Shown piece by piece: positions 21,064 to 57,871 of a DNA stretch of 64,000 bases. Below the pieces are notes generated by a model. That model worked only from the letters and a program-made list of their open reading frames with translations. It made no database searches and was not told where the DNA came from. A program made the translations under genes and the position numbers. The first letter of the stretch is position 1. The number at the start of each line of letters is the position of its first letter. Source of the stretch: Escherichia coli 042 (lineage in GTDB: Bacteria > Pseudomonadota > Gammaproteobacteria > Enterobacterales > Enterobacteriaceae); NCBI RefSeq assembly GCF_000027125.1, contig NC_017626.1; one strand, 5' to 3'.

Positions 21064-23124
21064 TCACTTCTTCATCTGCGACAATATCGTCCGACACTGA
21101 TTAGCCTCCCCTTCGGAAGGTGAGATCAGCGCCAGTAACGCCGCCGCTGGCGTAACCAGCGTTGCCAGTGCCGCCGCAACGGCTCCGCGAGCAATCAACG
21201 GCCCGGCTTTCACCCCAGCCTGCGGATTTTTAAACGTCCCACGCACATACAGCGGCGAACGCAGTGTGATAATCCGAATTCCTTTACTCTCCGGATCAAT
21301 AGTCAAATCCAGCTGTTCCGAAGCAAAACTTGCCGTGCCGGTAATGTTAATCAACGCGTTCTCAGTATCGAAAGCAAAAATCTGCGGACGCGCCACGCCG
21401 TTGGCAATATCCAGATTCGCCGCCGCACAGTTCACCCGCACCTCATCGTCACCAAATATCGCACCGACAATGTAGTTACCGACATTCAGCCCGACAATCT
21501 CCATCAGGTTGCGGCTCACCAGCCCGTCATTCATCAGCAGTTTCAGGTTGCCGTTACTGTTGCCTAAAAGCGCCGCCACCGAGTTACCGCTACCGCGTAG
21601 TTCCGCGTCACCGTTCATTTCCCCCAGCGTCTTCTGCATCAGTTCTACATCGGGCATCAGTTCTTTCAGTTTCAGCCGACGAGCCTGAATATCCGCCCGC
21701 CCCTGCATCGGTTTTTTATCGCCCTCCAGATGAATATTCGCCGCAATGCTGCCGCCCGCCATGCCAAATTTCAGCGGTTGCAGGCGCAGGTCAGCATTTT
21801 TGAGGATGATATGAGTAGAAAGATCGCTAATCGGCAGGCTACTGCCATGCTCAATGCGCCGCCCTTTGAAGCGAACATCGGCATCCATAACGTCCCATTT
21901 ATCGGTTTCGAAGCGGTCATAAGGCAGCACTTTGCCCGCAGGCTGAATGCTTTTTTCACCCTTCTTCTGTTCAGACCGTTTCGACTTTTCAGCTCCTTTC
22001 CCGGAATCAACGCCAATCAACGGTCCCAGGTCCACCAGCCGCAATTGCCGCGACTCGACATCACCTTCTAGTTTTGGTCGTGGCTTGCCGGTGGTGTAGA
22101 CCAGAGAACCGTGGATATCGCTATCGCCAATGCGCCCATTAAAACCGCGATAATCAAAGACCGACGATTTTTCAGTGTCGATTTTCGCTACCAGCCGACC
22201 ATCCGTTTCAAACGGCGGGGTATCGGGCAGCAGAACGCCCGTCAGTTCATAGAGATCACCCAGCGAATCGCCAGAAAATTTAAGCCGTAAATCGACACCA
22301 CCCATCTTCATTGGGTCATTCACAACGCCATCAAAAGCAACACGGGTGTTACCAGAGCGGAAATCAGCCTGTACCGGAAACGGCGTCCCTTCGCCACGCA
22401 GCGCCAGCATACCGCCAATTTTCCCCTTACCCGCGAGCGGCTCTCCGTTATAACGTCCCTGCGCCTTCAGGCCAAAAACGTAATCGCCCACCTTTTCTTT
22501 ATCCGCTTTACCTTTCGATCCAGTAACTTCGCTGAACGGCAGCGGCTTGCCTAACGGATCGACAAAAATTTCCAGATCCGCTTTGCTTACTTTGTCATCA
22601 ATGGCGATCCGCCCTTGATCGAACAGAATATTATCCAGCCGAAACGACCATGCCGACGGCTTTGCATTCGTGTCTTTGTTGTCATCGTTGGCGAGATTAA
22701 AGGTCCAGTTATTGTTCTTTTCAGAGAGGCGAATCAGGCGTGCGTCGGGCTTTTCCAGTTTGATCCACGGTAGCCAGACCGTTTTGGTCAGCAGCGCCAA
22801 CGGTGCCAGCGTTGCCTCTACGCGTGGCAAATGCACCATCGTGACTTCGGGAATATCCGGTGGATTGCCAAGAATGATGTCTTCCGCGTGTACATGGGGC
22901 CACGGCACCCAGCTGCGCCAGCCAGTTTCTTGTTTTTGTCGCTCCCACTCCACGCCCAGATCGCCACGGATAGCGAACGGACGATTCAGTTCAGTAGAGA
23001 CTTTCTGGTTGATGGTCGGTTTAAGGCGATTCCAGTCAAAAGTTGCAATCAAAATGATCGCCACGACAATCAACAACAAGAAAGCCCCTGAAATCGCAGC
23101 GGTTATTTTGCCTGCCTTGCTCAT
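21064..23124 (-). CDS. yhjG: AsmA-family outer-membrane biogenesis protein YhjG
   Basis: ORF 21064..23139; start placed at the ATG at 23122-23124 (MSKAGKITAAISGAFLLLIVV...) because AGGAAG lies 6 nt upstream; the alternative ATG at 23139 gives 691 aa. Confidence 0.88.
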   Translation of the reverse strand: MSKAGKITAAISGAFLLLIVVAIILIATFDWNRLKPTINQKVSTELNRPFAIRGDLGVEWERQKQETGWRSWVPWPHVHAEDIILGNPPDIPEVTMVHLPRVEATLAPLALLTKTVWLPWIKLEKPDARLIRLSEKNNNWTFNLANDDNKDTNAKPSAWSFRLDNILFDQGRIAIDDKVSKADLEIFVDPLGKPLPFSEVTGSKGKADKEKVGDYVFGLKAQGRYNGEPLAGKGKIGGMLALRGEGTPFPVQADFRSGNTRVAFDGVVNDPMKMGGVDLRLKFSGDSLGDLYELTGVLLPDTPPFETDGRLVAKIDTEKSSVFDYRGFNGRIGDSDIHGSLVYTTGKPRPKLEGDVESRQLRLVDLGPLIGVDSGKGAEKSKRSEQKKGEKSIQPAGKVLPYDRFETDKWDVMDADVRFKGRRIEHGSSLPISDLSTHIILKNADLRLQPLKFGMAGGSIAANIHLEGDKKPMQGRADIQARRLKLKELMPDVELMQKTLGEMNGDAELRGSGNSVAALLGNSNGNLKLLMNDGLVSRNLMEIVGLNVGNYIVGAIFGDDEVRVNCAAANLDIANGVARPQIFAFDTENALINITGTASFASEQLDLTIDPESKGIRIITLRSPLYVRGTFKNPQAGVKAGPLIARGAVAAALATLVTPAAALLALISPSEGEANQCRTILSQMKK

Positions 23125-23193
23125 CGTTCGCTTCCTCATATTCTTCCTGTGCCAGTCCTAAAGATAGTCCAGCCAGGCGGAAAATGAGGCAGC

Positions 23194-23961
23194 TTATAGC
23201 GCCAGAACCGCCGTATTCAGCGTTTCTATCGGTGCCGGGCGTGAAAGAAACCAGCCTTGTGCGGCGAATGCGGGCGAGTTCTGAACATCACGCCACTCTT
23301 CCGGCGTTTCTACGCCCTCGACGATCACCCCGCGACAATAGCGATTCATGAGATGTAAAAGCTGAGAAAAGAGTGTGCGTCCTTCCGGCGACTGACGCAG
23401 CATCACAAACAGCTCTCGCGCGATTTTGATGTAGTCATAACGCACTTCACTTAGCGCAGAGAAATTTGCCATCCCGGTGCCAAAATCATCCAGCCACAGC
23501 GGGCCAAATTCACACATCGAGGCAAAGGTTGAATCTTTCGGCAGACGGATGTGTTCCACCAGTTCGAAACGCAGCCAGGGAAGACGCTCAATCTGGCGCA
23601 GGATTTTTGGTTGCTGACGCAGGGCGATGAGCGTAGGGCCATCAATATTGACCGATGCCAGCAGGTCGTGCTCTACAAAGAAGTCGGCTTTTTGCGCCAG
23701 CAAATCAATCTGCTCTTTCACAACCTCCATCCGATAGCTGACGGTGATTTCAGTAAAATAGCGATCCGGCGGCAGGCGTTGCGAAGGGTTCAAGGGATGC
23801 GTGACCACCGTTAATAGCTCCACGGCCATTAACCGCCCGCATGTTTGATAGATCGGCTGCCAGGTGTAAGCACGCTCACACTGCAACCAAAAACGCCGTT
23901 CCTGCAAGCTCTCGATGCTTGCTTCAGGGTTGCTTATTCGCTGGATAACCTGCCTTATCAT
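23194..23961 (-). CDS. pdeH: c-di-GMP phosphodiesterase PdeH (EAL domain)
   Basis: ORF 23194..24006 trimmed to the ATG at 23959-23961 (MIRQVIQRISNPEASIESLQERRF...); 255 aa; EAL-domain protein. Confidence 0.92.
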   Translation of the reverse strand: MIRQVIQRISNPEASIESLQERRFWLQCERAYTWQPIYQTCGRLMAVELLTVVTHPLNPSQRLPPDRYFTEITVSYRMEVVKEQIDLLAQKADFFVEHDLLASVNIDGPTLIALRQQPKILRQIERLPWLRFELVEHIRLPKDSTFASMCEFGPLWLDDFGTGMANFSALSEVRYDYIKIARELFVMLRQSPEGRTLFSQLLHLMNRYCRGVIVEGVETPEEWRDVQNSPAFAAQGWFLSRPAPIETLNTAVLAL

Positions 23962-24009
23962 CAAAGATGTCCTGTGTTTAAAAGTGATGCTGCCCGGACT
24001 CGACAAAGA

Positions 24010-24036
24010 TTATCGGCGCGCAAGGGCAGAACTTTA
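24010..24036 (-). promoter_or_regulatory. Sigma-28 (FliA) promoter for pdeH
   Basis: On the minus strand TAAAGTTC-N11-GCCGATAA (consensus TAAAGTTT-N11-GCCGATAA), about 40-50 nt upstream of the pdeH ATG. pdeH is a known class 3 flagellar gene. Confidence 0.65.
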
Positions 24037-24108
24037 CCGCCTGGCCGGGTTAAATTTCCCCACTCCACAACGGAATCTTTCAGGAATACGTTCTGGCTCA
24101 AAAAAATA

Positions 24109-24126
24109 ATGGAACACTGTTTTAAT
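24109..24126 (+). promoter_or_regulatory. Putative KdgR operator upstream of kdgK
   Basis: ATGGAACACTGTTTTAAT resembles the KdgR palindrome ATGAAACAnTGTTTCAT (about 15 of 17), about 70 bp upstream of the kdgK ATG. Confidence 0.4.
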
Positions 24127-24192
24127 ATGGTTGACCAGCAAACCACCACAGCGCAAACTAACGCTAATTTTTTACAGATCAGGTTCACGACT

Positions 24193-25122
24193 ATGTCCAA
24201 AAAGATTGCCGTGATTGGCGAATGCATGATTGAGCTTTCCGAGAAAGGCGCGGACGTTAAGCGCGGTTTCGGCGGCGATACCCTGAACACCTCCGTCTAT
24301 ATCGCCCGTCAGGTCGATCCTGCGGCATTAACCGTTCATTACGTAACGGCGCTGGGAACGGACAGTTTTAGCCAGCAAATGCTGGACGCCTGGCACGGCG
24401 AGAACGTTGATACTTCCCTGACCCAACGGATGGAAAACCGTCTTCCGGGCCTTTACTACATTGAAACCGACAGCACCGGCGAACGTACGTTCTACTACTG
24501 GCGTAACGAAGCCGCCGCCAAATTCTGGCTGGAGAGCGAGCAGTCTGCGGCGATTTGCGAAGAGCTGGCGAATTTCGATTATCTCTACCTGAGCGGGATT
24601 AGCCTGGCGATCTTAAGCCCGACCAGCCGCGAGAAACTGCTTTCTTTGTTGCGCGAATGCCGCGCCAACGGCGGAAAAGTAATTTTCGACAATAACTATC
24701 GTCCGCGCCTGTGGGCCAGCAAAGAAGAGACACAGCAGGTGTACCAGCAAATGCTGGAATGCACGGATATCGCCTTCCTGACGCTGGACGACGAAGACGC
24801 GCTATGGGGTCAACAGCCGGTGGAAGACGTCATTGCGCGCACCCATAACGCGGGCGTGAAAGAAGTGGTGGTGAAACGCGGGGCGGATTCTTGCCTGGTG
24901 TCCATTGCTGGCGAAGGGTTAGTGGATGTTCCGGCGGTGAAACTGCCGAAAGAAAAAGTGATCGATACCACCGCAGCTGGCGACTCTTTCAGTGCCGGTT
25001 ATCTGGCGGTACGTTTGACGGGCGGCAGTGCGGAAAACGCGGCGAAACGCGGGCACCTGACCGCAAGTACCGTTATTCAGTATCGCGGCGCGATTATCCC
25101 GCGTGAGGCAATGCCGGAATAA
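24193..25122 (+). CDS. kdgK: 2-dehydro-3-deoxygluconokinase
   Basis: ORF 23845..25122 trimmed to the ATG at 24193 (MSKKIAVIGECMIELSEKGADVKRGFGGDTLNTSVY...); 309 aa; PfkB sugar-kinase family. Confidence 0.93.
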   Translation: MSKKIAVIGECMIELSEKGADVKRGFGGDTLNTSVYIARQVDPAALTVHYVTALGTDSFSQQMLDAWHGENVDTSLTQRMENRLPGLYYIETDSTGERTFYYWRNEAAAKFWLESEQSAAICEELANFDYLYLSGISLAILSPTSREKLLSLLRECRANGGKVIFDNNYRPRLWASKEETQQVYQQMLECTDIAFLTLDDEDALWGQQPVEDVIARTHNAGVKEVVVKRGADSCLVSIAGEGLVDVPAVKLPKEKVIDTTAAGDSFSAGYLAVRLTGGSAENAAKRGHLTASTVIQYRGAIIPREAMPE

Positions 25123-25678
25123 TGGTTTTTGACGGAGAACGGGTAGATATTCGTTCTCCGTTAATCGCCTTGCAGGGGTGAACCGAACTATGCTGATAAT
25201 TTGAAGTAAACTGCTGACGCATATCATTCAAACTACGCGTAAATTTAAGCGGGTTCTCACCTTTAATTTCGACCGTGACGAAGACATTCCCATTGTTGTT
25301 AAAGAAGCCAAAATAATAGTCATGTTGATGACGACGATTGGTTTTAAATTGACGAAATGATAAATAGCAGCGGTTATCGTAGGTAATTAAAAAATCATTT
25401 TCTCCGTATTCGTTTATCATCTTATTTTTCAGGCTACCATCGAAGAGCACTGCATACTTATCTTTGTCAGCAAATAATTCGGCATCAGTTTCTCGGTTGA
25501 TCGTGTTGACGCTGATACCGAATTCTATTTTTACCTTGTCTTTATCGATATTATTTCTTGTGCTGACATACATATTATTGGCATCCCAGAGTAAGAGAAA
25601 GTTTTTGTTGCAGGAATAAAGACCTGTTAAGCAAAGAATGACTGTTAGCAAGAATAGTATGCGTTTTTTGTTACGCAT
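25094..25678 (-). CDS. Hypothetical lipoprotein (islet ORF A); 3' end reads across the islet junction into kdgK
   Basis: ATG at 25676-25678 preceded by AGGAG with 5-nt spacing; N-terminus MRNKKRILFLLTVILCLTGLYSC looks like a lipoprotein signal. The frame stays open across the junction near 25167 and ends inside the kdgK 3' end, so the native C-terminus may be truncated. Confidence 0.45.
   Translation of the reverse strand: MRNKKRILFLLTVILCLTGLYSCNKNFLLLWDANNMYVSTRNNIDKDKVKIEFGISVNTINRETDAELFADKDKYAVLFDGSLKNKMINEYGENDFLITYDNRCYLSFRQFKTNRRHQHDYYFGFFNNNGNVFVTVEIKGENPLKFTRSLNDMRQQFTSNYQHSSVHPCKAINGERISTRSPSKTIIPALPHAG
25133..25160 (+). terminator. Hairpin downstream of the kdgK stop (putative kdgK terminator)
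   Basis: Inverted repeat cggagaacg / cgttctccg starting 11 nt after the kdgK stop. Confidence 0.4.
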
Positions 25679-25739
25679 TTATACTCCTGAAAATGCGTTG
25701 AGGTCGCAAATATAATTAAATAGTCTGACATAAATAAAA

Positions 25740-26060
25740 TTAATTCCCTATCAATAATACATCTGCGACTTTTCTTGGTCCTTCGTAGATCTCAAATGCC
25801 TCGTACTTAGTCATCCATTGTTCAGGGGCGGTATCGAAAAGGAACTGAACGCACCCCATTGAAACGATACGTCCATCGGTTACATTAGGTTTTTCCAATT
25901 CAAAAACAACGCTCCATGCATTATTTTGCCAGTCAGTTTTCTCCTCTGGAAACCTGGAGACGGGATAATATCTACCGATAGGAGGTGCGCTCCTTCTGCC
26001 ACCTTCATTTTCTGTAAGCCAAACAACCTTTACACGATACATATGTTTCCATTCATTCAT
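25740..26060 (-). CDS. Hypothetical protein (islet ORF B, 106 aa)
   Basis: ATG at 26058-26060 lies 3 nt after the ORF C stop (TAA-TTA-ATG), suggesting translational coupling; no family recognised. Confidence 0.4.
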   Translation of the reverse strand: MNEWKHMYRVKVVWLTENEGGRRSAPPIGRYYPVSRFPEEKTDWQNNAWSVVFELEKPNVTDGRIVSMGCVQFLFDTAPEQWMTKYEAFEIYEGPRKVADVLLIGN

Positions 26061-26063
26061 TAA

Positions 26064-26543
26064 TTAAATTAAGTGTGAATTATATAATATTGCCACCCCA
26101 TGCGATCTTTCCCATTTTAGTCCATCAACTAATAATGATAGAAAAGAATACTGGAAGCTTATATTTTTAATCACTTCTATTTTTTCATCATCTAATGACA
26201 AGATTACCCACCCCCCGTAATTTTTGCTAACCAGGTTGTTAATAAATTTAATTATAGGATTGGTTGAAATATCCTTTCCTTTATTCACAGCCATTTCCAG
26301 GTCATCGACTAAAGAACCATTGAAGTTGTAAACATGATATTCATTAAAGTCTATGTGCTCATCTAAAGGTGGGCCATAAGTAATCGGTAGATTGCATCTC
26401 TGCAAAAGATGATGATTACACCAGGCGTATACCGGAGGGTCGCGATGAAAGGTTTCCCCACCCCAGTGAACCATAACCTCTTGTAGATCTAGTTCCTCTG
26501 GAGCGAATCGTGTAGGGAGTAAAATATCCAAGTGAAAATCCAT
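26064..26543 (-). CDS. Hypothetical protein (islet ORF C, 159 aa)
   Basis: ATG at 26541-26543 preceded by AGGATAGG; no recognisable motif; AT-rich codon usage. Confidence 0.45.
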   Translation of the reverse strand: MDFHLDILLPTRFAPEELDLQEVMVHWGGETFHRDPPVYAWCNHHLLQRCNLPITYGPPLDEHIDFNEYHVYNFNGSLVDDLEMAVNKGKDISTNPIIKFINNLVSKNYGGWVILSLDDEKIEVIKNISFQYSFLSLLVDGLKWERSHGVAILYNSHLI

Positions 26544-26642
26544 AGCCTATCCTAAATTTGGCACCCATAACATAAACTGTGTAAGAATCAACGACTGCCC
26601 CCCCAAAAATGGGAAAATTTACTTATTATGCAAAGTTACTTA

Positions 26643-26897
26643 TTAAGAAGCCCATTCCTCATTTTTTGGCAAATAGCCCTTTCGCCAACAGGTCAGAATC
26701 TTAAAACTCGCTCGCAAATAAAATTTATTAGCCGAATCGTTTTTAACCATTCTGACTAATGTCATCTCACCCGTTCTTTTATCTATCACGAACTCGCCGT
26801 AATCAGATCTACAATAGTCAGAAGATGTAGGTCCAAATTCATATTTTACTACTTTATCAGTTTCTTCAATTTTCAATATTTCTATATGATAGGCCAT
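26643..26897 (-). CDS. Hypothetical protein (islet ORF D, 84 aa)
   Basis: ATG overlaps the ORF E stop (TAATG, 26895-26899), a classic translational-coupling arrangement; no family recognised. Confidence 0.4.
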   Translation of the reverse strand: MAYHIEILKIEETDKVVKYEFGPTSSDYCRSDYGEFVIDKRTGEMTLVRMVKNDSANKFYLRASFKILTCWRKGYLPKNEEWAS

Positions 26898-27322
26898 TAT
26901 TTAACACCATCTATTGCCTGGCATCGTATACAGCTAAAACCAGTAGCTAAAATCTCAACATAACTATCATAACCTGCTATAATATAATGTTTTAACTTTA
27001 ACCGTTTTTTAGGGTCATATAATCTCTCTTTTTCTTCAAGCGGTACAGAATTCATTACTTGATATATACCGGAGTCCAGATTTTCACCATCAACCTTCTT
27101 AATAACAATATTGTTATAGTTGGCTTCATGAAAATTGACGGTAGCACACTTAACTTCAGCAACTGTAGTGAAGACCAGTTCAATTTGAACATAATCTTTC
27201 TCTGTTGATATTAACTCCAGAGCATCTACTTTAATGTTGACGCCATCAGACTCTGTATATGTTAAAGATAAATAAGTTGTGGAAATCCTGAATCCAATCG
27301 ATTGTGATTTTAACACAAGCAT
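26897..27322 (-). CDS. Hypothetical protein (islet ORF E, about 141 aa)
   Basis: ORF 26897..27346 starts at a GTG; the in-frame ATG at 27320-27322 (MLVLKSQSIGF...) has AAGGAG 7 nt upstream and is preferred. First gene of the minus-strand cluster. Confidence 0.45.
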   Translation of the reverse strand: MLVLKSQSIGFRISTTYLSLTYTESDGVNIKVDALELISTEKDYVQIELVFTTVAEVKCATVNFHEANYNNIVIKKVDGENLDSGIYQVMNSVPLEEKERLYDPKKRLKLKHYIIAGYDSYVEILATGFSCIRCQAIDGVK

Positions 27323-27489
27323 AAACTCACTCCTTCCAGTAGGCACAGGTATAATTTATTCAGCTAATAAATAATTAAACCCACTCTACGGTAAGTTTAT
27401 TTTAATAATGAATGGTTATCTGCGCGCTACCGCCGTGCCCGGAAAAATATCTGCGGTTATATCACGGTAACTAATTTATTACCGTTAAT

Positions 27490-27518
27490 CCCGGCAGCGC
27501 AGAAGAAACGCTGCCGGG
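27490..27518. terminator. Terminator hairpin at the yhjJ 3' end
   Basis: Inverted repeat cccggcagcg / cgctgccggg followed by ttatttatt on the plus strand, abutting the yhjJ stop; it looks like the original convergent kdgK/yhjJ terminator, now separated from kdgK by the islet. Confidence 0.5.
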
Positions 27519-27525
27519 TTATTTA

Positions 27526-46973: not shown

Positions 46974-47059
46974 GAACGAAAAAGGCCGCAGAGTTTCACC
47001 CCTGCGGCCTGATCCGGGCGCAAATTGCCATTACGGCAGCCTGACGCCCGCATGACACG

Positions 47060-47167
47060 TTACTTCCGCTTATTCAGCGAGTTCACGATCAGACTGGCAA
47101 GAATGCCAGCAATGACCGGAGCCGCTAAATCATGCCAGAAGGCCATGCCCAGTTCTGCGAGCGTCAT
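47060..47167 (-). CDS. ldr: Ldr-family type I toxin peptide (35 aa), copy 1
   Basis: MTLAELGMAFWHDLAAPVIAGILASLIVNSLNKRK; ATG at 47165-47167. The ORF-track 80-aa ORF is an upstream in-frame extension. Confidence 0.85.
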   Translation of the reverse strand: MTLAELGMAFWHDLAAPVIAGILASLIVNSLNKRK

Positions 47168-47215
47168 ATAGCCGCCTCTGTTGTAATGACAACGTTTCGC
47201 GGCTATTCTTGAGTT

Positions 47216-47283
47216 GTTTGGGTTCAAGATTAGCCCCCGTGATGTTGTCAGGTGCATACCTGCAACGTGCGGGGGTTTTCTCT
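47216..47283 (+). ncRNA. rdl: Rdl-family antisense RNA, copy 1
   Basis: Plus-strand element ending in the hairpin gcccccg...cgggggttttctct within the ldr leader; coordinates inferred from my recollection of RdlD. Confidence 0.55.
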
Positions 47284-47542
47284 CTCCAGCAACCAATGCC
47301 ACCAGGGATTAAGCCCCCGCAACATTGCGCCTCACCGGAACCCTTCCGGCTTGCCGCTGATTCTACGGCCATTTTTGTTCGTCGAAATCCATCACTTCTT
47401 CACTCTGTGCTGCGCATTCCGCAGAATATTATCCGCTTGCAGCCGTTGCATTTTTCTTACGAAAAAGGCCGCAGAGTTTCACCTCTGCGGCCTGGTCCGG
47501 GCGCAAATTGCCATTACGGCAGCCTGACGCCCGTCTGACACG

Positions 47543-47650
47543 TTACTTCCGCTTATTCAGCCAGTTCACGATCATGCTGGCAAGAATGCCAGCAATGACC
47601 GGAGCCGCTAAATCATGCCAGAAGGCCATGCCCAGCTCTGCGAGCGTCAT
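47543..47650 (-). CDS. ldr: Ldr-family type I toxin peptide (35 aa), copy 2
   Basis: Same frame and length as copy 1; C-terminus ...ASMIVNWLNKRK; not reported separately in the ORF track. Confidence 0.8.
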   Translation of the reverse strand: MTLAELGMAFWHDLAAPVIAGILASMIVNWLNKRK

Positions 47651-47698
47651 ATAGCCGCCAGTGTTGTAATGACAACGTTTCGCGGCTATTCTTGAGTT

Positions 47699-47766
47699 GT
47701 GTAGGTTCAAGAATGGCCCCCGTCATATTGTCAGGTGAATACCTGCAACGTGCGGGGGTTTTCTCT
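47699..47766 (+). ncRNA. rdl: Rdl-family antisense RNA, copy 2
   Basis: Repeat-unit copy of the rdl element with terminator hairpin. Confidence 0.5.
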
Positions 47767-48025
47767 CTCCAGCAACCAATGCCACCAGGGATTAAGCCCC
47801 CGCAACATTGCGCCTCACCGGAACCCTTCCGGCTTGCCGCTGATTCTACGACTGTTTTTCTGTTCCGAAATCCATCACTTCTTCACTCTGTGCTGCGCAT
47901 TCCGCAGAATATTATCCGCTTGCAGCCGTTGCATTTTTCTTACGAAAAAGGCCGCAGAGTTTTATCCCTGCGGCCTGATCCGGGCGCAAATTGCCATTAC
48001 GGCAGCCTGACGCCCGTCTGACACG

Positions 48026-48133
48026 TTACTTCTGCTTGTTCAGCCAGTTCACGATCATGCTGGCAAGAATGCCAGCAATGACCGGAGCCGCTAAATCGTG
48101 CCAGAAGGCCATGCCCAGCTCTGCGAGCGTCAT
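48026..48133 (-). CDS. ldr: Ldr-family type I toxin peptide (35 aa), copy 3
   Basis: MTLAELGMAFWHDLAAPVIAGILASMIVNWLNKQK. Confidence 0.85.
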   Translation of the reverse strand: MTLAELGMAFWHDLAAPVIAGILASMIVNWLNKQK

Positions 48134-48181
48134 ATAGCCGCCTCTGTTGTAATGACAACGTTTCGCGGCTATTCTTGAGTT

Positions 48182-48249
48182 GTGTAGGTTCAAGAATGGC
48201 CCCCGTGATGTTGTCAGGTGCATACCTGCAACGTGCGGGGGTTTTCTCT
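48182..48249 (+). ncRNA. rdl: Rdl-family antisense RNA, copy 3
   Basis: Repeat-unit copy of the rdl element with terminator hairpin. Confidence 0.5.
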
Positions 48250-48508
48250 CTCCAGCAACCAATGCCACCAGGGATTAAGCCCCCGCAACATTGCGCCTCA
48301 CCGGAACCCTTCCGGCTTGCCGCTGATTCTACGACTGTTTTTCTGTTCCGAAATCCATCACTTCTTCACTCTGTGCTGCGCATTCCGCAGAATATTATCC
48401 GCTTGCAGCCGTTGCATTTTTCTTACGAAAAAGGCCGCAGAGTTTCACCTCTGCGGCCTGGTCCGGGCGCAAATTGCCATTACGGCAGCCTGACGCCCGT
48501 CTGACACG

Positions 48509-48616
48509 TTACTTCCGCTTGTTCAGCCAGTTCACGATCATGCTGGCAAGAATGCCAGCAATGACCGGAGCCGCTAAATCATGCCAGAAGGCCATGCCCA
48601 GTTCTGCGAGCGTCAT
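48509..48616 (-). CDS. ldr: Ldr-family type I toxin peptide (35 aa), copy 4
   Basis: MTLAELGMAFWHDLAAPVIAGILASMIVNWLNKRK. Confidence 0.85.
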   Translation of the reverse strand: MTLAELGMAFWHDLAAPVIAGILASMIVNWLNKRK

Positions 48617-48664
48617 ATAGCCGCCTGAGTTGTAATGACAACGTTTCGCGGCTATTCTTGAATG

Positions 48665-48732
48665 GTCTAGATGCAAGAATGGCCCCCGTGGTGTTGTCAG
48701 GTGCATACCTGCAACGTGCGGGGGTTTTCTCT
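48665..48732 (+). ncRNA. rdl: Rdl-family antisense RNA, copy 4 (RdlD-like)
   Basis: gtctagatgcaagaatggcccccgtggtgttgtcaggtgcatacctgcaacgtgcgggggttttctct, the copy closest to the RdlD sequence as I recall it. Confidence 0.6.
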
Positions 48733-48991
48733 CTCCAGCAACCAATGCCACCAGGGATTAAGCCCCCGCAACATTGCGCCTCACCGGAACCCTTCCGGCT
48801 TGCCGCTGATTCTACGGCCATTTTTGTTCGTCGAAATCCATCACTTCTTCACTCTGTGCTGCGCATTCCGCAGAATATTATCCGCTTGCAGCCGTTGCAT
48901 TTTTCTTACGAAAAAGGCCGCAGAGTTTTATCCCTGCGGCCTGATCCGGGCGCAAATTGCCATTACGGCAGCCTGACGCCCGTCTGACACG

Positions 48992-49099
48992 TTACTTCTG
49001 CTTGTTCAGCCAGTTCACGATCATGCTGGCAAGAATGCCAGCAATGACCGGAGCCGCTAAATCGTGCCAGAAGGCCATGCCCAGCTCTGCGAGCGTCAT
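48992..49099 (-). CDS. ldr: Ldr-family type I toxin peptide (35 aa), copy 5
   Basis: MTLAELGMAFWHDLAAPVIAGILASMIVNWLNKQK. Confidence 0.85.
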   Translation of the reverse strand: MTLAELGMAFWHDLAAPVIAGILASMIVNWLNKQK

Positions 49100-49147
49100 A
49101 TAGCCGCCTCTGTTGTAATGACAACGTTTCGCGGCTATTCTTGAGTT

Positions 49148-49215
49148 GTGTAGGTTCAAGAATGGCCCCCGTGATGTTGTCAGGTGCATACCTGCAACGT
49201 GCGGGGGTTTTCTCT
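49148..49215 (+). ncRNA. rdl: Rdl-family antisense RNA, copy 5
   Basis: Repeat-unit copy of the rdl element with terminator hairpin. Confidence 0.5.
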
Positions 49216-49574
49216 CTCCAGCAACCAATGCCACCAGGGATAAAGCCCCCGCAACATTGCGCCTCACCGGAACCTTTCCGGCTTGCCGCTGATTCTACGA
49301 TTGCTTTTTACCGTCAGCACCCGGCAATCTTCCTCATTGCGCGATGCCTTCCAGCTTAATTTCTTTATTTGCAATAGTTGCAGTTCATATCCGGGCTGAC
49401 TCCAGACTGGTAGTGAAATGCGCAATTTTGTAGAATTGCGCCTCCTCGCGACCTCCCCAGTGAATCTGTTGCCTCATTTTTTACATACTGCGTATTCGAC
49501 TTCTCCACCTGTTGCGCAAGAGAAACTGGGTTTATTCATTTTTGCGAGGCCGACTTCTTTCTGGACAGGACTTT

Positions 49575-57295: not shown

Positions 57296-57794
57296 GCGGT
57301 CGCGCCGCATCCGACAATGGGCCGGCACATTTGCCTGATGCGACGCTGGCGCGTCTTATCAGGCCTACGTCGAATCGAACCTCCCTGCCCCCGGAAGTTC
57401 TCATCCTCTTCAGGCCGCAGAAAGCAAAAAACCAGCCCGTAGGCTGGTTTTTCTAAATTGGTCGGTGATAGAGGATTACTCGCCACTTCGTGGCTCGCCC
57501 TGCGGGCCGTTGCTGGCGCAACGTTCTCTCGCTTCGCTCGAGTCGAATCTCCCTGCCCCCGGAGGTTCTCATCCTCATAGGCTACAAATGCAAAAAAGCC
57601 TGCTCGCTGAGCAGGCTTTTCGAATTTGGTCGGTGCCAGAGGATTACTCGCCACTTCGTGGCTCGCCCTGCGGGCCGTTGCTGGCGCAACGTTCTCTCGC
57701 TTCGCTCGAGTCGAACCTCCCTGCCCCCGGAGGTTCTCATCCTCATGGGCTACAAATGCAAAAAAGCCTGCTCGCTGAGCAGGCTTTTCGAATT
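57296..57794. repeat. Three tandem imperfect direct repeats (about 150-185 bp), each ending with a terminator hairpin plus a roughly 20-nt copy of the proK 3' end
   Basis: Units at about 57296-57479, 57480-57648 and 57649-57794. Each contains tcgaa(t/c)ctccctgcccccgga(a/g)gttctcatcctc, a hairpin (aaaaaaccagcccgtaggctggttttt or aaaaaagcctgctcgctgagcaggctttt) and aatttggtcggtg(at/cc)agaggatt, which matches the proK 3' terminus. Confidence 0.7.
57762..57790 (-). terminator. Rho-independent terminator of proK
   Basis: On the minus strand aaaagcctgctcagcgagcaggcttttttg, 5 nt after the tRNA 3' end. Confidence 0.65.

Positions 57795-57871
<77 letters not shown>

Follow-up and report, generated by a model that had tools for sequence, protein, structure and literature searches.

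The window, a 64,000-nt stretch of DNA from Escherichia coli 042, carries on its minus strand the pdeH (yhjH) gene for an EAL-domain c-di-GMP phosphodiesterase, with yhjG downstream on the same strand and kdgK as the divergent upstream neighbor. The gene order yhjG-pdeH / kdgK is found both in the best match of the window and in MG1655. The encoded protein begins with MIRQVIQR and matches the NCBIfam equivalog NF008617 over residues 1-254 of 255 with a score of 460.7 bits (cutoff 190). An earlier note on this DNA had proposed a near-consensus sigma-28 (FliA) promoter upstream of a gene that it named pdeH; the name of the gene is borne out by this score of 461 bits and by the RefSeq annotation of identical DNA. 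Of 5426 complete E. coli genomes, 5421 contain the 361 bp surrounding the proposed promoter, in every case between kdgK and pdeH. The promoter elements, the gene and the neighboring features discussed below are listed in Table 1.

Table 1. Promoter elements of pdeH and other features of the window.
Feature	Coordinates	Strand	Basis or remark
-35 octamer TAAAGTTC of the FliA (sigma-28) promoter	24036..24029	minus	strand read directly; 7/8 consensus positions
11-nt spacer TGCCCTTGCGC	24028..24018	minus	strand read directly
-10 octamer GCCGATAA (extended -10 and core -10)	24017..24010	minus	8/8 consensus positions
Predicted transcription start, G, 6th base past the -10 octamer	24004	minus	analogy with aer
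Predicted 5' leader, 43 nt	23962..24004	minus	sequence reading
Shine-Dalgarno AGGA, 8 nt ahead of ATG	23973-23970	minus	sequence reading
pdeH (yhjH) coding sequence, 255 aa	23194..23961	minus	ORF and RefSeq annotation of identical DNA
Near-palindrome TAAAACAGTGTTCCA	24110-24124
Low-GC islet	25123-27525
Islet ORF, lipoprotein-like signal	25094-25678	minus
Islet ORF	25740-26060	minus
Islet ORF	26064-26543	minus
Islet ORF	26643-26897	minus
Islet ORF	26897-27346	minus
Tandem array	46976-49309
Two RtT RNA matches	57459-57871	minus	Rfam

The sigma-28 consensus is TAAAGTTT-n11-GCCGATAA (Hollands et al., PMC2859248). The pdeH site agrees with it at 15 of 16 positions, and its spacer is exactly 11 nt long. 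The sole mismatch is a C at position 8 of the -35 octamer, where the tar promoter has T. Among 51 FliA-bound sites of E. coli the frequencies of A, C, G and T at this position are.25,.24,.18 and.33, and the pdeH site is effectively a full match because its mismatch falls on a position nearly without information. The site lies on the coding strand of pdeH, with 48 nt between the -10 octamer and the ATG at 23961. On direct reading, the earlier note was exact in placing the motif at 24010-24036 of the minus strand; its count of 15 matching positions with correct spacing agrees with the published consensus, and its estimate of some 40-50 nt to the pdeH start includes the measured distance.

A consensus match alone is no proof of function, and many weak FliA-like sites lie inside genes (PMC4183435), so that a chance resemblance without promoter function has to be weighed. 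With at most one mismatch allowed, the pdeH site is the only match in the 64-kb window, none of 100 dinucleotide-preserving shuffles of the window gave any, and the analytic expectation is 0.0015 per window, or ~0.1 per 4.6-Mb E. coli genome; these figures speak against chance. At up to three mismatches, two matches were found in the window against 0.59 expected, therefore only the near-perfect match is meaningful. The other one, a 3-mismatch match at 1826-1852, was rejected as a FliA site at chance level.

Sites were scored with a weight matrix derived from Table 2 of Fitzgerald et al. 2014 (PMC4183435), using the 51 FliA ChIP-seq motifs listed there other than that of yhjH. The resulting leave-one-out score of the pdeH site is 23.3 bits, which would place it fourth among 52 published bound sites of E. 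coli, behind tar, flgMN and motA. The second-best site in the window scores 14.7 bits, and the maxima of the shuffled windows average 14.5 bits, the largest being 20.4. All other matches to the matrix in the window (14.7 bits or less) were accordingly rejected as FliA sites, being at chance level.

The 231-bp intergenic region between pdeH and kdgK differs from that of MG1655 by three SNPs. One is located in the spacer of the promoter, at 24021 (G in the window, A in MG1655), and two lie upstream of the -35 octamer. The window and MG1655 are identical in both octamers of the orthologous promoter, in the length of the spacer, in the leader and in the start codon. The exact 71-nt promoter allele of the window (23990-24060) is present in 181 of 5426 complete genomes. 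The promoter is one already known in detail, present here as a minor allelic variant.

Homologs of pdeH were selected by the protein alone, with one genome per species, giving 80 loci with 67-92% amino-acid identity. The set covers 17 named genera (Escherichia, Citrobacter, Salmonella, Enterobacter, Lelliottia, Leclercia, Kosakonia, Yokenella, Phytobacter, Pluralibacter, Huaxiibacter, Silvania, Superficieibacter, Siccibacter, Atlantibacter, Franconibacter and Pseudocitrobacter), as well as several MAGs and one record titled Chryseobacterium, which is probably mislabelled. Upstream DNA is available for 78 of these loci, and all 78 possess a FliA site of at least 19 bits on the coding strand of pdeH. 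In 76 of 77 loci, a scan of 250 nt of upstream DNA placed a site of 19-23.6 bits 47-57 nt ahead of the approximate start codon. The exception, locus L010 of Citrobacter amalonaticus S646, keeps its site at 22.3 bits. As a control, the opposite strand of the same upstream stretches gave a maximum of 10.5 bits, and among 1777 other 250-nt blocks of the same loci only 4 reached 15 bits or more (maximum 18.9). The divergent neighbor kdgK is kept in 76 of the 78 loci.

In locus L010, ~215 bp (about 2770-2985) are inserted between the FliA promoter and the ribosome-binding site of pdeH, giving a leader of ~260 nt.

Positions 1-7 of the -35 octamer and all eight positions of the -10 octamer, that is 15 of the 16 consensus positions, are invariant in the 78 loci. 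The spacer is always 11 nt long and occurs in 56 distinct sequences. The information content per column is 1.94 and 2.00 bits in the two boxes, 0.61 bits in the spacer and 0.5-0.7 bits in the flanks. Promoters in Salmonella, Citrobacter, Enterobacter, Kosakonia and other Enterobacteriaceae share the boxes and the spacing of the window, whereas their spacer and leader sequences diverge freely. Invariant boxes on either side of a spacer saturated with changes are a second argument against a chance resemblance.

The third argument comes from published work on MG1655 and K-12. A FliA ChIP-seq peak at yhjH is among the strongest in MG1655 (fold-above-threshold, FAT, 67), with the motif TAAAGTTCTGCCCTTACGCGCCGATAAT (PMC4183435, Table 2). 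The motif center is given as 3677273 in NC_000913.2 (Fitzgerald et al. 2014, PMC4183435), and an offset of 3653249 from window to NC_000913.2 coordinates, which we inferred, agrees with this center within 2 nt. Transferred in this way, the center of the MG1655 peak falls at ~23995 of the window, ~27 nt downstream of the motif center, and the same downstream offset has been described for holoenzyme-bound promoters (PMC4183435). The yhjH RNA level drops significantly, from 511 in motile MG1655 to 2 in a fliA deletion, a loss of ~250-fold (PMC4183435). In microarrays, yhjH changed -9.6-fold in a fliA deletion and +1.9-fold 5 min after FliA induction (Zhao et al. 2007, PMC1935009). YhjH is unexpressed in flhDC and fliA mutants and over-expressed in flgM mutants (Serra et al. 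2013, PMC3604763), and a pdeH::gfp fusion was chosen, as that of a class 3 gene, to report sigma-FliA activity (Klauck et al. 2018, PMC6119863). Given the statistics, the conservation in homologs and the published data on binding and expression, a chance resemblance has next to no probability.

The link to the flagellar cascade drawn in the earlier note is therefore sound, since its motif is the published FliA site of MG1655. The FliA-dependence and reporter experiments that it suggested as a check are already in the literature, and they agree (PMC4183435, PMC1935009, PMC6119863). Binding of FliA in vivo and FliA-dependent expression are known from this literature for the near-identical MG1655 sequence, and we infer that the promoter of E. 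coli 042 behaves in the same way.

Dual class 2/class 3 promoters are known from several flagellar operons (PMC4183435), and it is conceivable that a promoter of another type (sigma-70, FlhDC-activated class 2 or sigma-S) is the main driver of pdeH, the FliA site being auxiliary as at fliA, fliD and fliL. A simple consensus scan of 22900-24500, which may miss weak sigma-70 promoters, found no sigma-70-like promoter. The RNA figures quoted above leave essentially zero residual transcription when FliA is lacking, and yhjH is absent from the FlhDC-bound sites in Table 1 of PMC4183435, which makes it a gene of class 3 only. With expression at background in the fliA deletion and no such site seen in the scanned region, we consider a dominant sigma-70 or FlhDC promoter very unlikely.

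The transcription start of pdeH is predicted at G24004 by analogy with the aer promoter, where primer extension placed the start 6 bp downstream of the -10 octamer (PMC2859248). The homologs of pdeH have a purine at position 6 or 7 past this octamer. A mapped start for pdeH, the other check that the earlier note suggested, is found neither in the supplements of Kim et al. 2012 and Cho et al. 2014, nor in that of Ettwiller et al. 2016 (searched by coordinate prefixes), nor by full-text literature search. The TTG at 24006-24004 that opens the longest pdeH ORF overlaps the predicted transcription start; the usable start codon would then be the annotated ATG (23961), which is preceded by the Shine-Dalgarno sequence AGGA. 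The earlier note took the promoter to confirm the gene call and its orientation; its position goes further in favoring this ATG over the TTG of the longest ORF. The site in the window thus confirms the annotation, the orientation and the start codon of pdeH in E. coli 042.

A structured leader or riboswitch-like element was also considered and rejected (MFE -8.8 kcal/mol, z = +1.05), and no Rfam match was found at or near the pdeH locus.

Two other sigma-28 promoters of E. coli are useful for comparison. The promoter of tar-tap-cheRBYZ has the same architecture as that of pdeH and is a perfect TAAAGTTT-n11-GCCGATAA, differing from pdeH at position 8 of the -35 octamer as noted above. In ChIP-seq both are strong, with FAT values of 57 for tar and 67 for pdeH in MG1655, and both genes are essentially off when FliA is lacking (PMC4183435). 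The aer promoter resembles that of pdeH in being sigma-28-dependent and located outside the core flagellar operons (PMC2859248). However, aer is farther from the consensus (TAAAGATA / GCCGACAT) and requires CRP at -49.5 (PMC2859248), whereas the pdeH site is near-perfect. At aer, the counterparts of a G to A change at position 5 of the -35 octamer and of changes in the core -10 CGAT abolish activity. Inspection by eye showed no CRP-like site in the pdeH promoter.

The motif, its significance, its conservation and the identity of the gene are matters of observation, and we assign the site to the class 3 flagellar FliA promoter of pdeH (yhjHp), with the start most likely at about G24004; we put the probability of this assignment at roughly 97%. 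FliA-RNA polymerase would recognize TAAAGTTC and GCCGATAA, set 11 nt apart, and transcription from about G24004 would run through a leader of ~43 nt into pdeH. FliA itself is a class 2 product under FlhDC, and FlgM keeps it inactive until the hook-basal body has been completed; its release at that point therefore turns pdeH on together with the flagellin, motor and chemotaxis genes. By lowering c-di-GMP, PdeH keeps the YcgR brake off, and the low c-di-GMP level also holds back or delays the production of CsgD/curli and cellulose, in line with established knowledge (PMC4183435, PMC6119863, PMC3604763). Through this promoter, flagellar assembly is linked to the main enzyme that degrades c-di-GMP in E. 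coli, and this link is central to the decision between motile and sessile life. It has been established for many years, and yhjH and ycgR were reportedly first assigned to the flagellar regulon by Ko and Park in 2000, a paper that Fitzgerald et al. cite as their reference 21. Our analysis adds a clean phylogenetic footprint and no new biology.

Two positions of the promoter behave differently in pdeH homologs and in the FliA sites at large. At position 8 of the -35 octamer, 70 of the homologs have C, 8 have A and none has T. All 78 pdeH promoters begin the spacer with T, at a position that is nearly uninformative among the other FliA sites of E. coli. It can be speculated, as a long shot, that the pdeH promoter is subject to gene-specific constraints beyond the generic FliA consensus at these two positions, or that the lineage-specific spacer SNP plays such a part, and that they tune the strength or timing of pdeH expression within class 3. 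If so, such bases would set the c-di-GMP level at which motility yields to biofilm formation.

The same promoter might also drive a longer pdeH-yhjG transcript, which would extend the assignment to pdeH and not replace it. A search for terminator-like hairpins in 23140-23193, between the pdeH stop at 23194 and the yhjG start (~55 nt), found none, although it was only a simple pattern search, and in 74 of the 78 loci yhjG is found downstream of pdeH in the same orientation. On these two grounds FliA-driven read-through into yhjG is possible. However, the FliA literature examined gives only yhjH as FliA-regulated, and yhjG is absent from Fitzgerald et al. 2014 (PMC4183435); on balance we regard the longer transcript as rather unlikely.

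Several features elsewhere in the window are described here in their own right. The near-palindrome TAAAACAGTGTTCCA lies in that half of the pdeH-kdgK intergenic region which is nearer to kdgK, and in other genera at least 43 of 75 loci have a close variant at the corresponding position. A comparison with a 21-nt KdgR operator consensus gave no match at up to three mismatches, and for this reason TAAAACAGTGTTCCA remains only a candidate KdgR operator for kdgK.

The low-GC islet (GC 0.32-0.41 against ~0.52 in the flanks) contains five small ORFs. Relative to MG1655, it substitutes for the 95-bp intergenic region between kdgK and yhjJ, with the final two kdgK codons replaced as well, and is present in 169-200 of 5426 complete E. 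coli genomes, where its annotation is "hypothetical" throughout. Its ORFs gave no match to Pfam, PADLOC or NCBIfam and a single marginal match to PHROG. The number of islet-bearing genomes resembles that of genomes with the 71-nt promoter allele, and this likeness of counts suggests that the allele and the islet both mark one lineage.

In the tandem array, a 483-bp unit is repeated 4.8 times (95% matches), and Rfam gives five matches to the rdlD antitoxin RNA. The array has the look of an expanded type I toxin-antitoxin locus of the ldr/rdl (LDR) kind, at a place where K-12 has a single ldrD/rdlD copy. Finally, the two RtT RNA matches adjoin a tRNA gene, with matches to naRNA4 and ES036 nearby, all of them ordinary Rfam matches.
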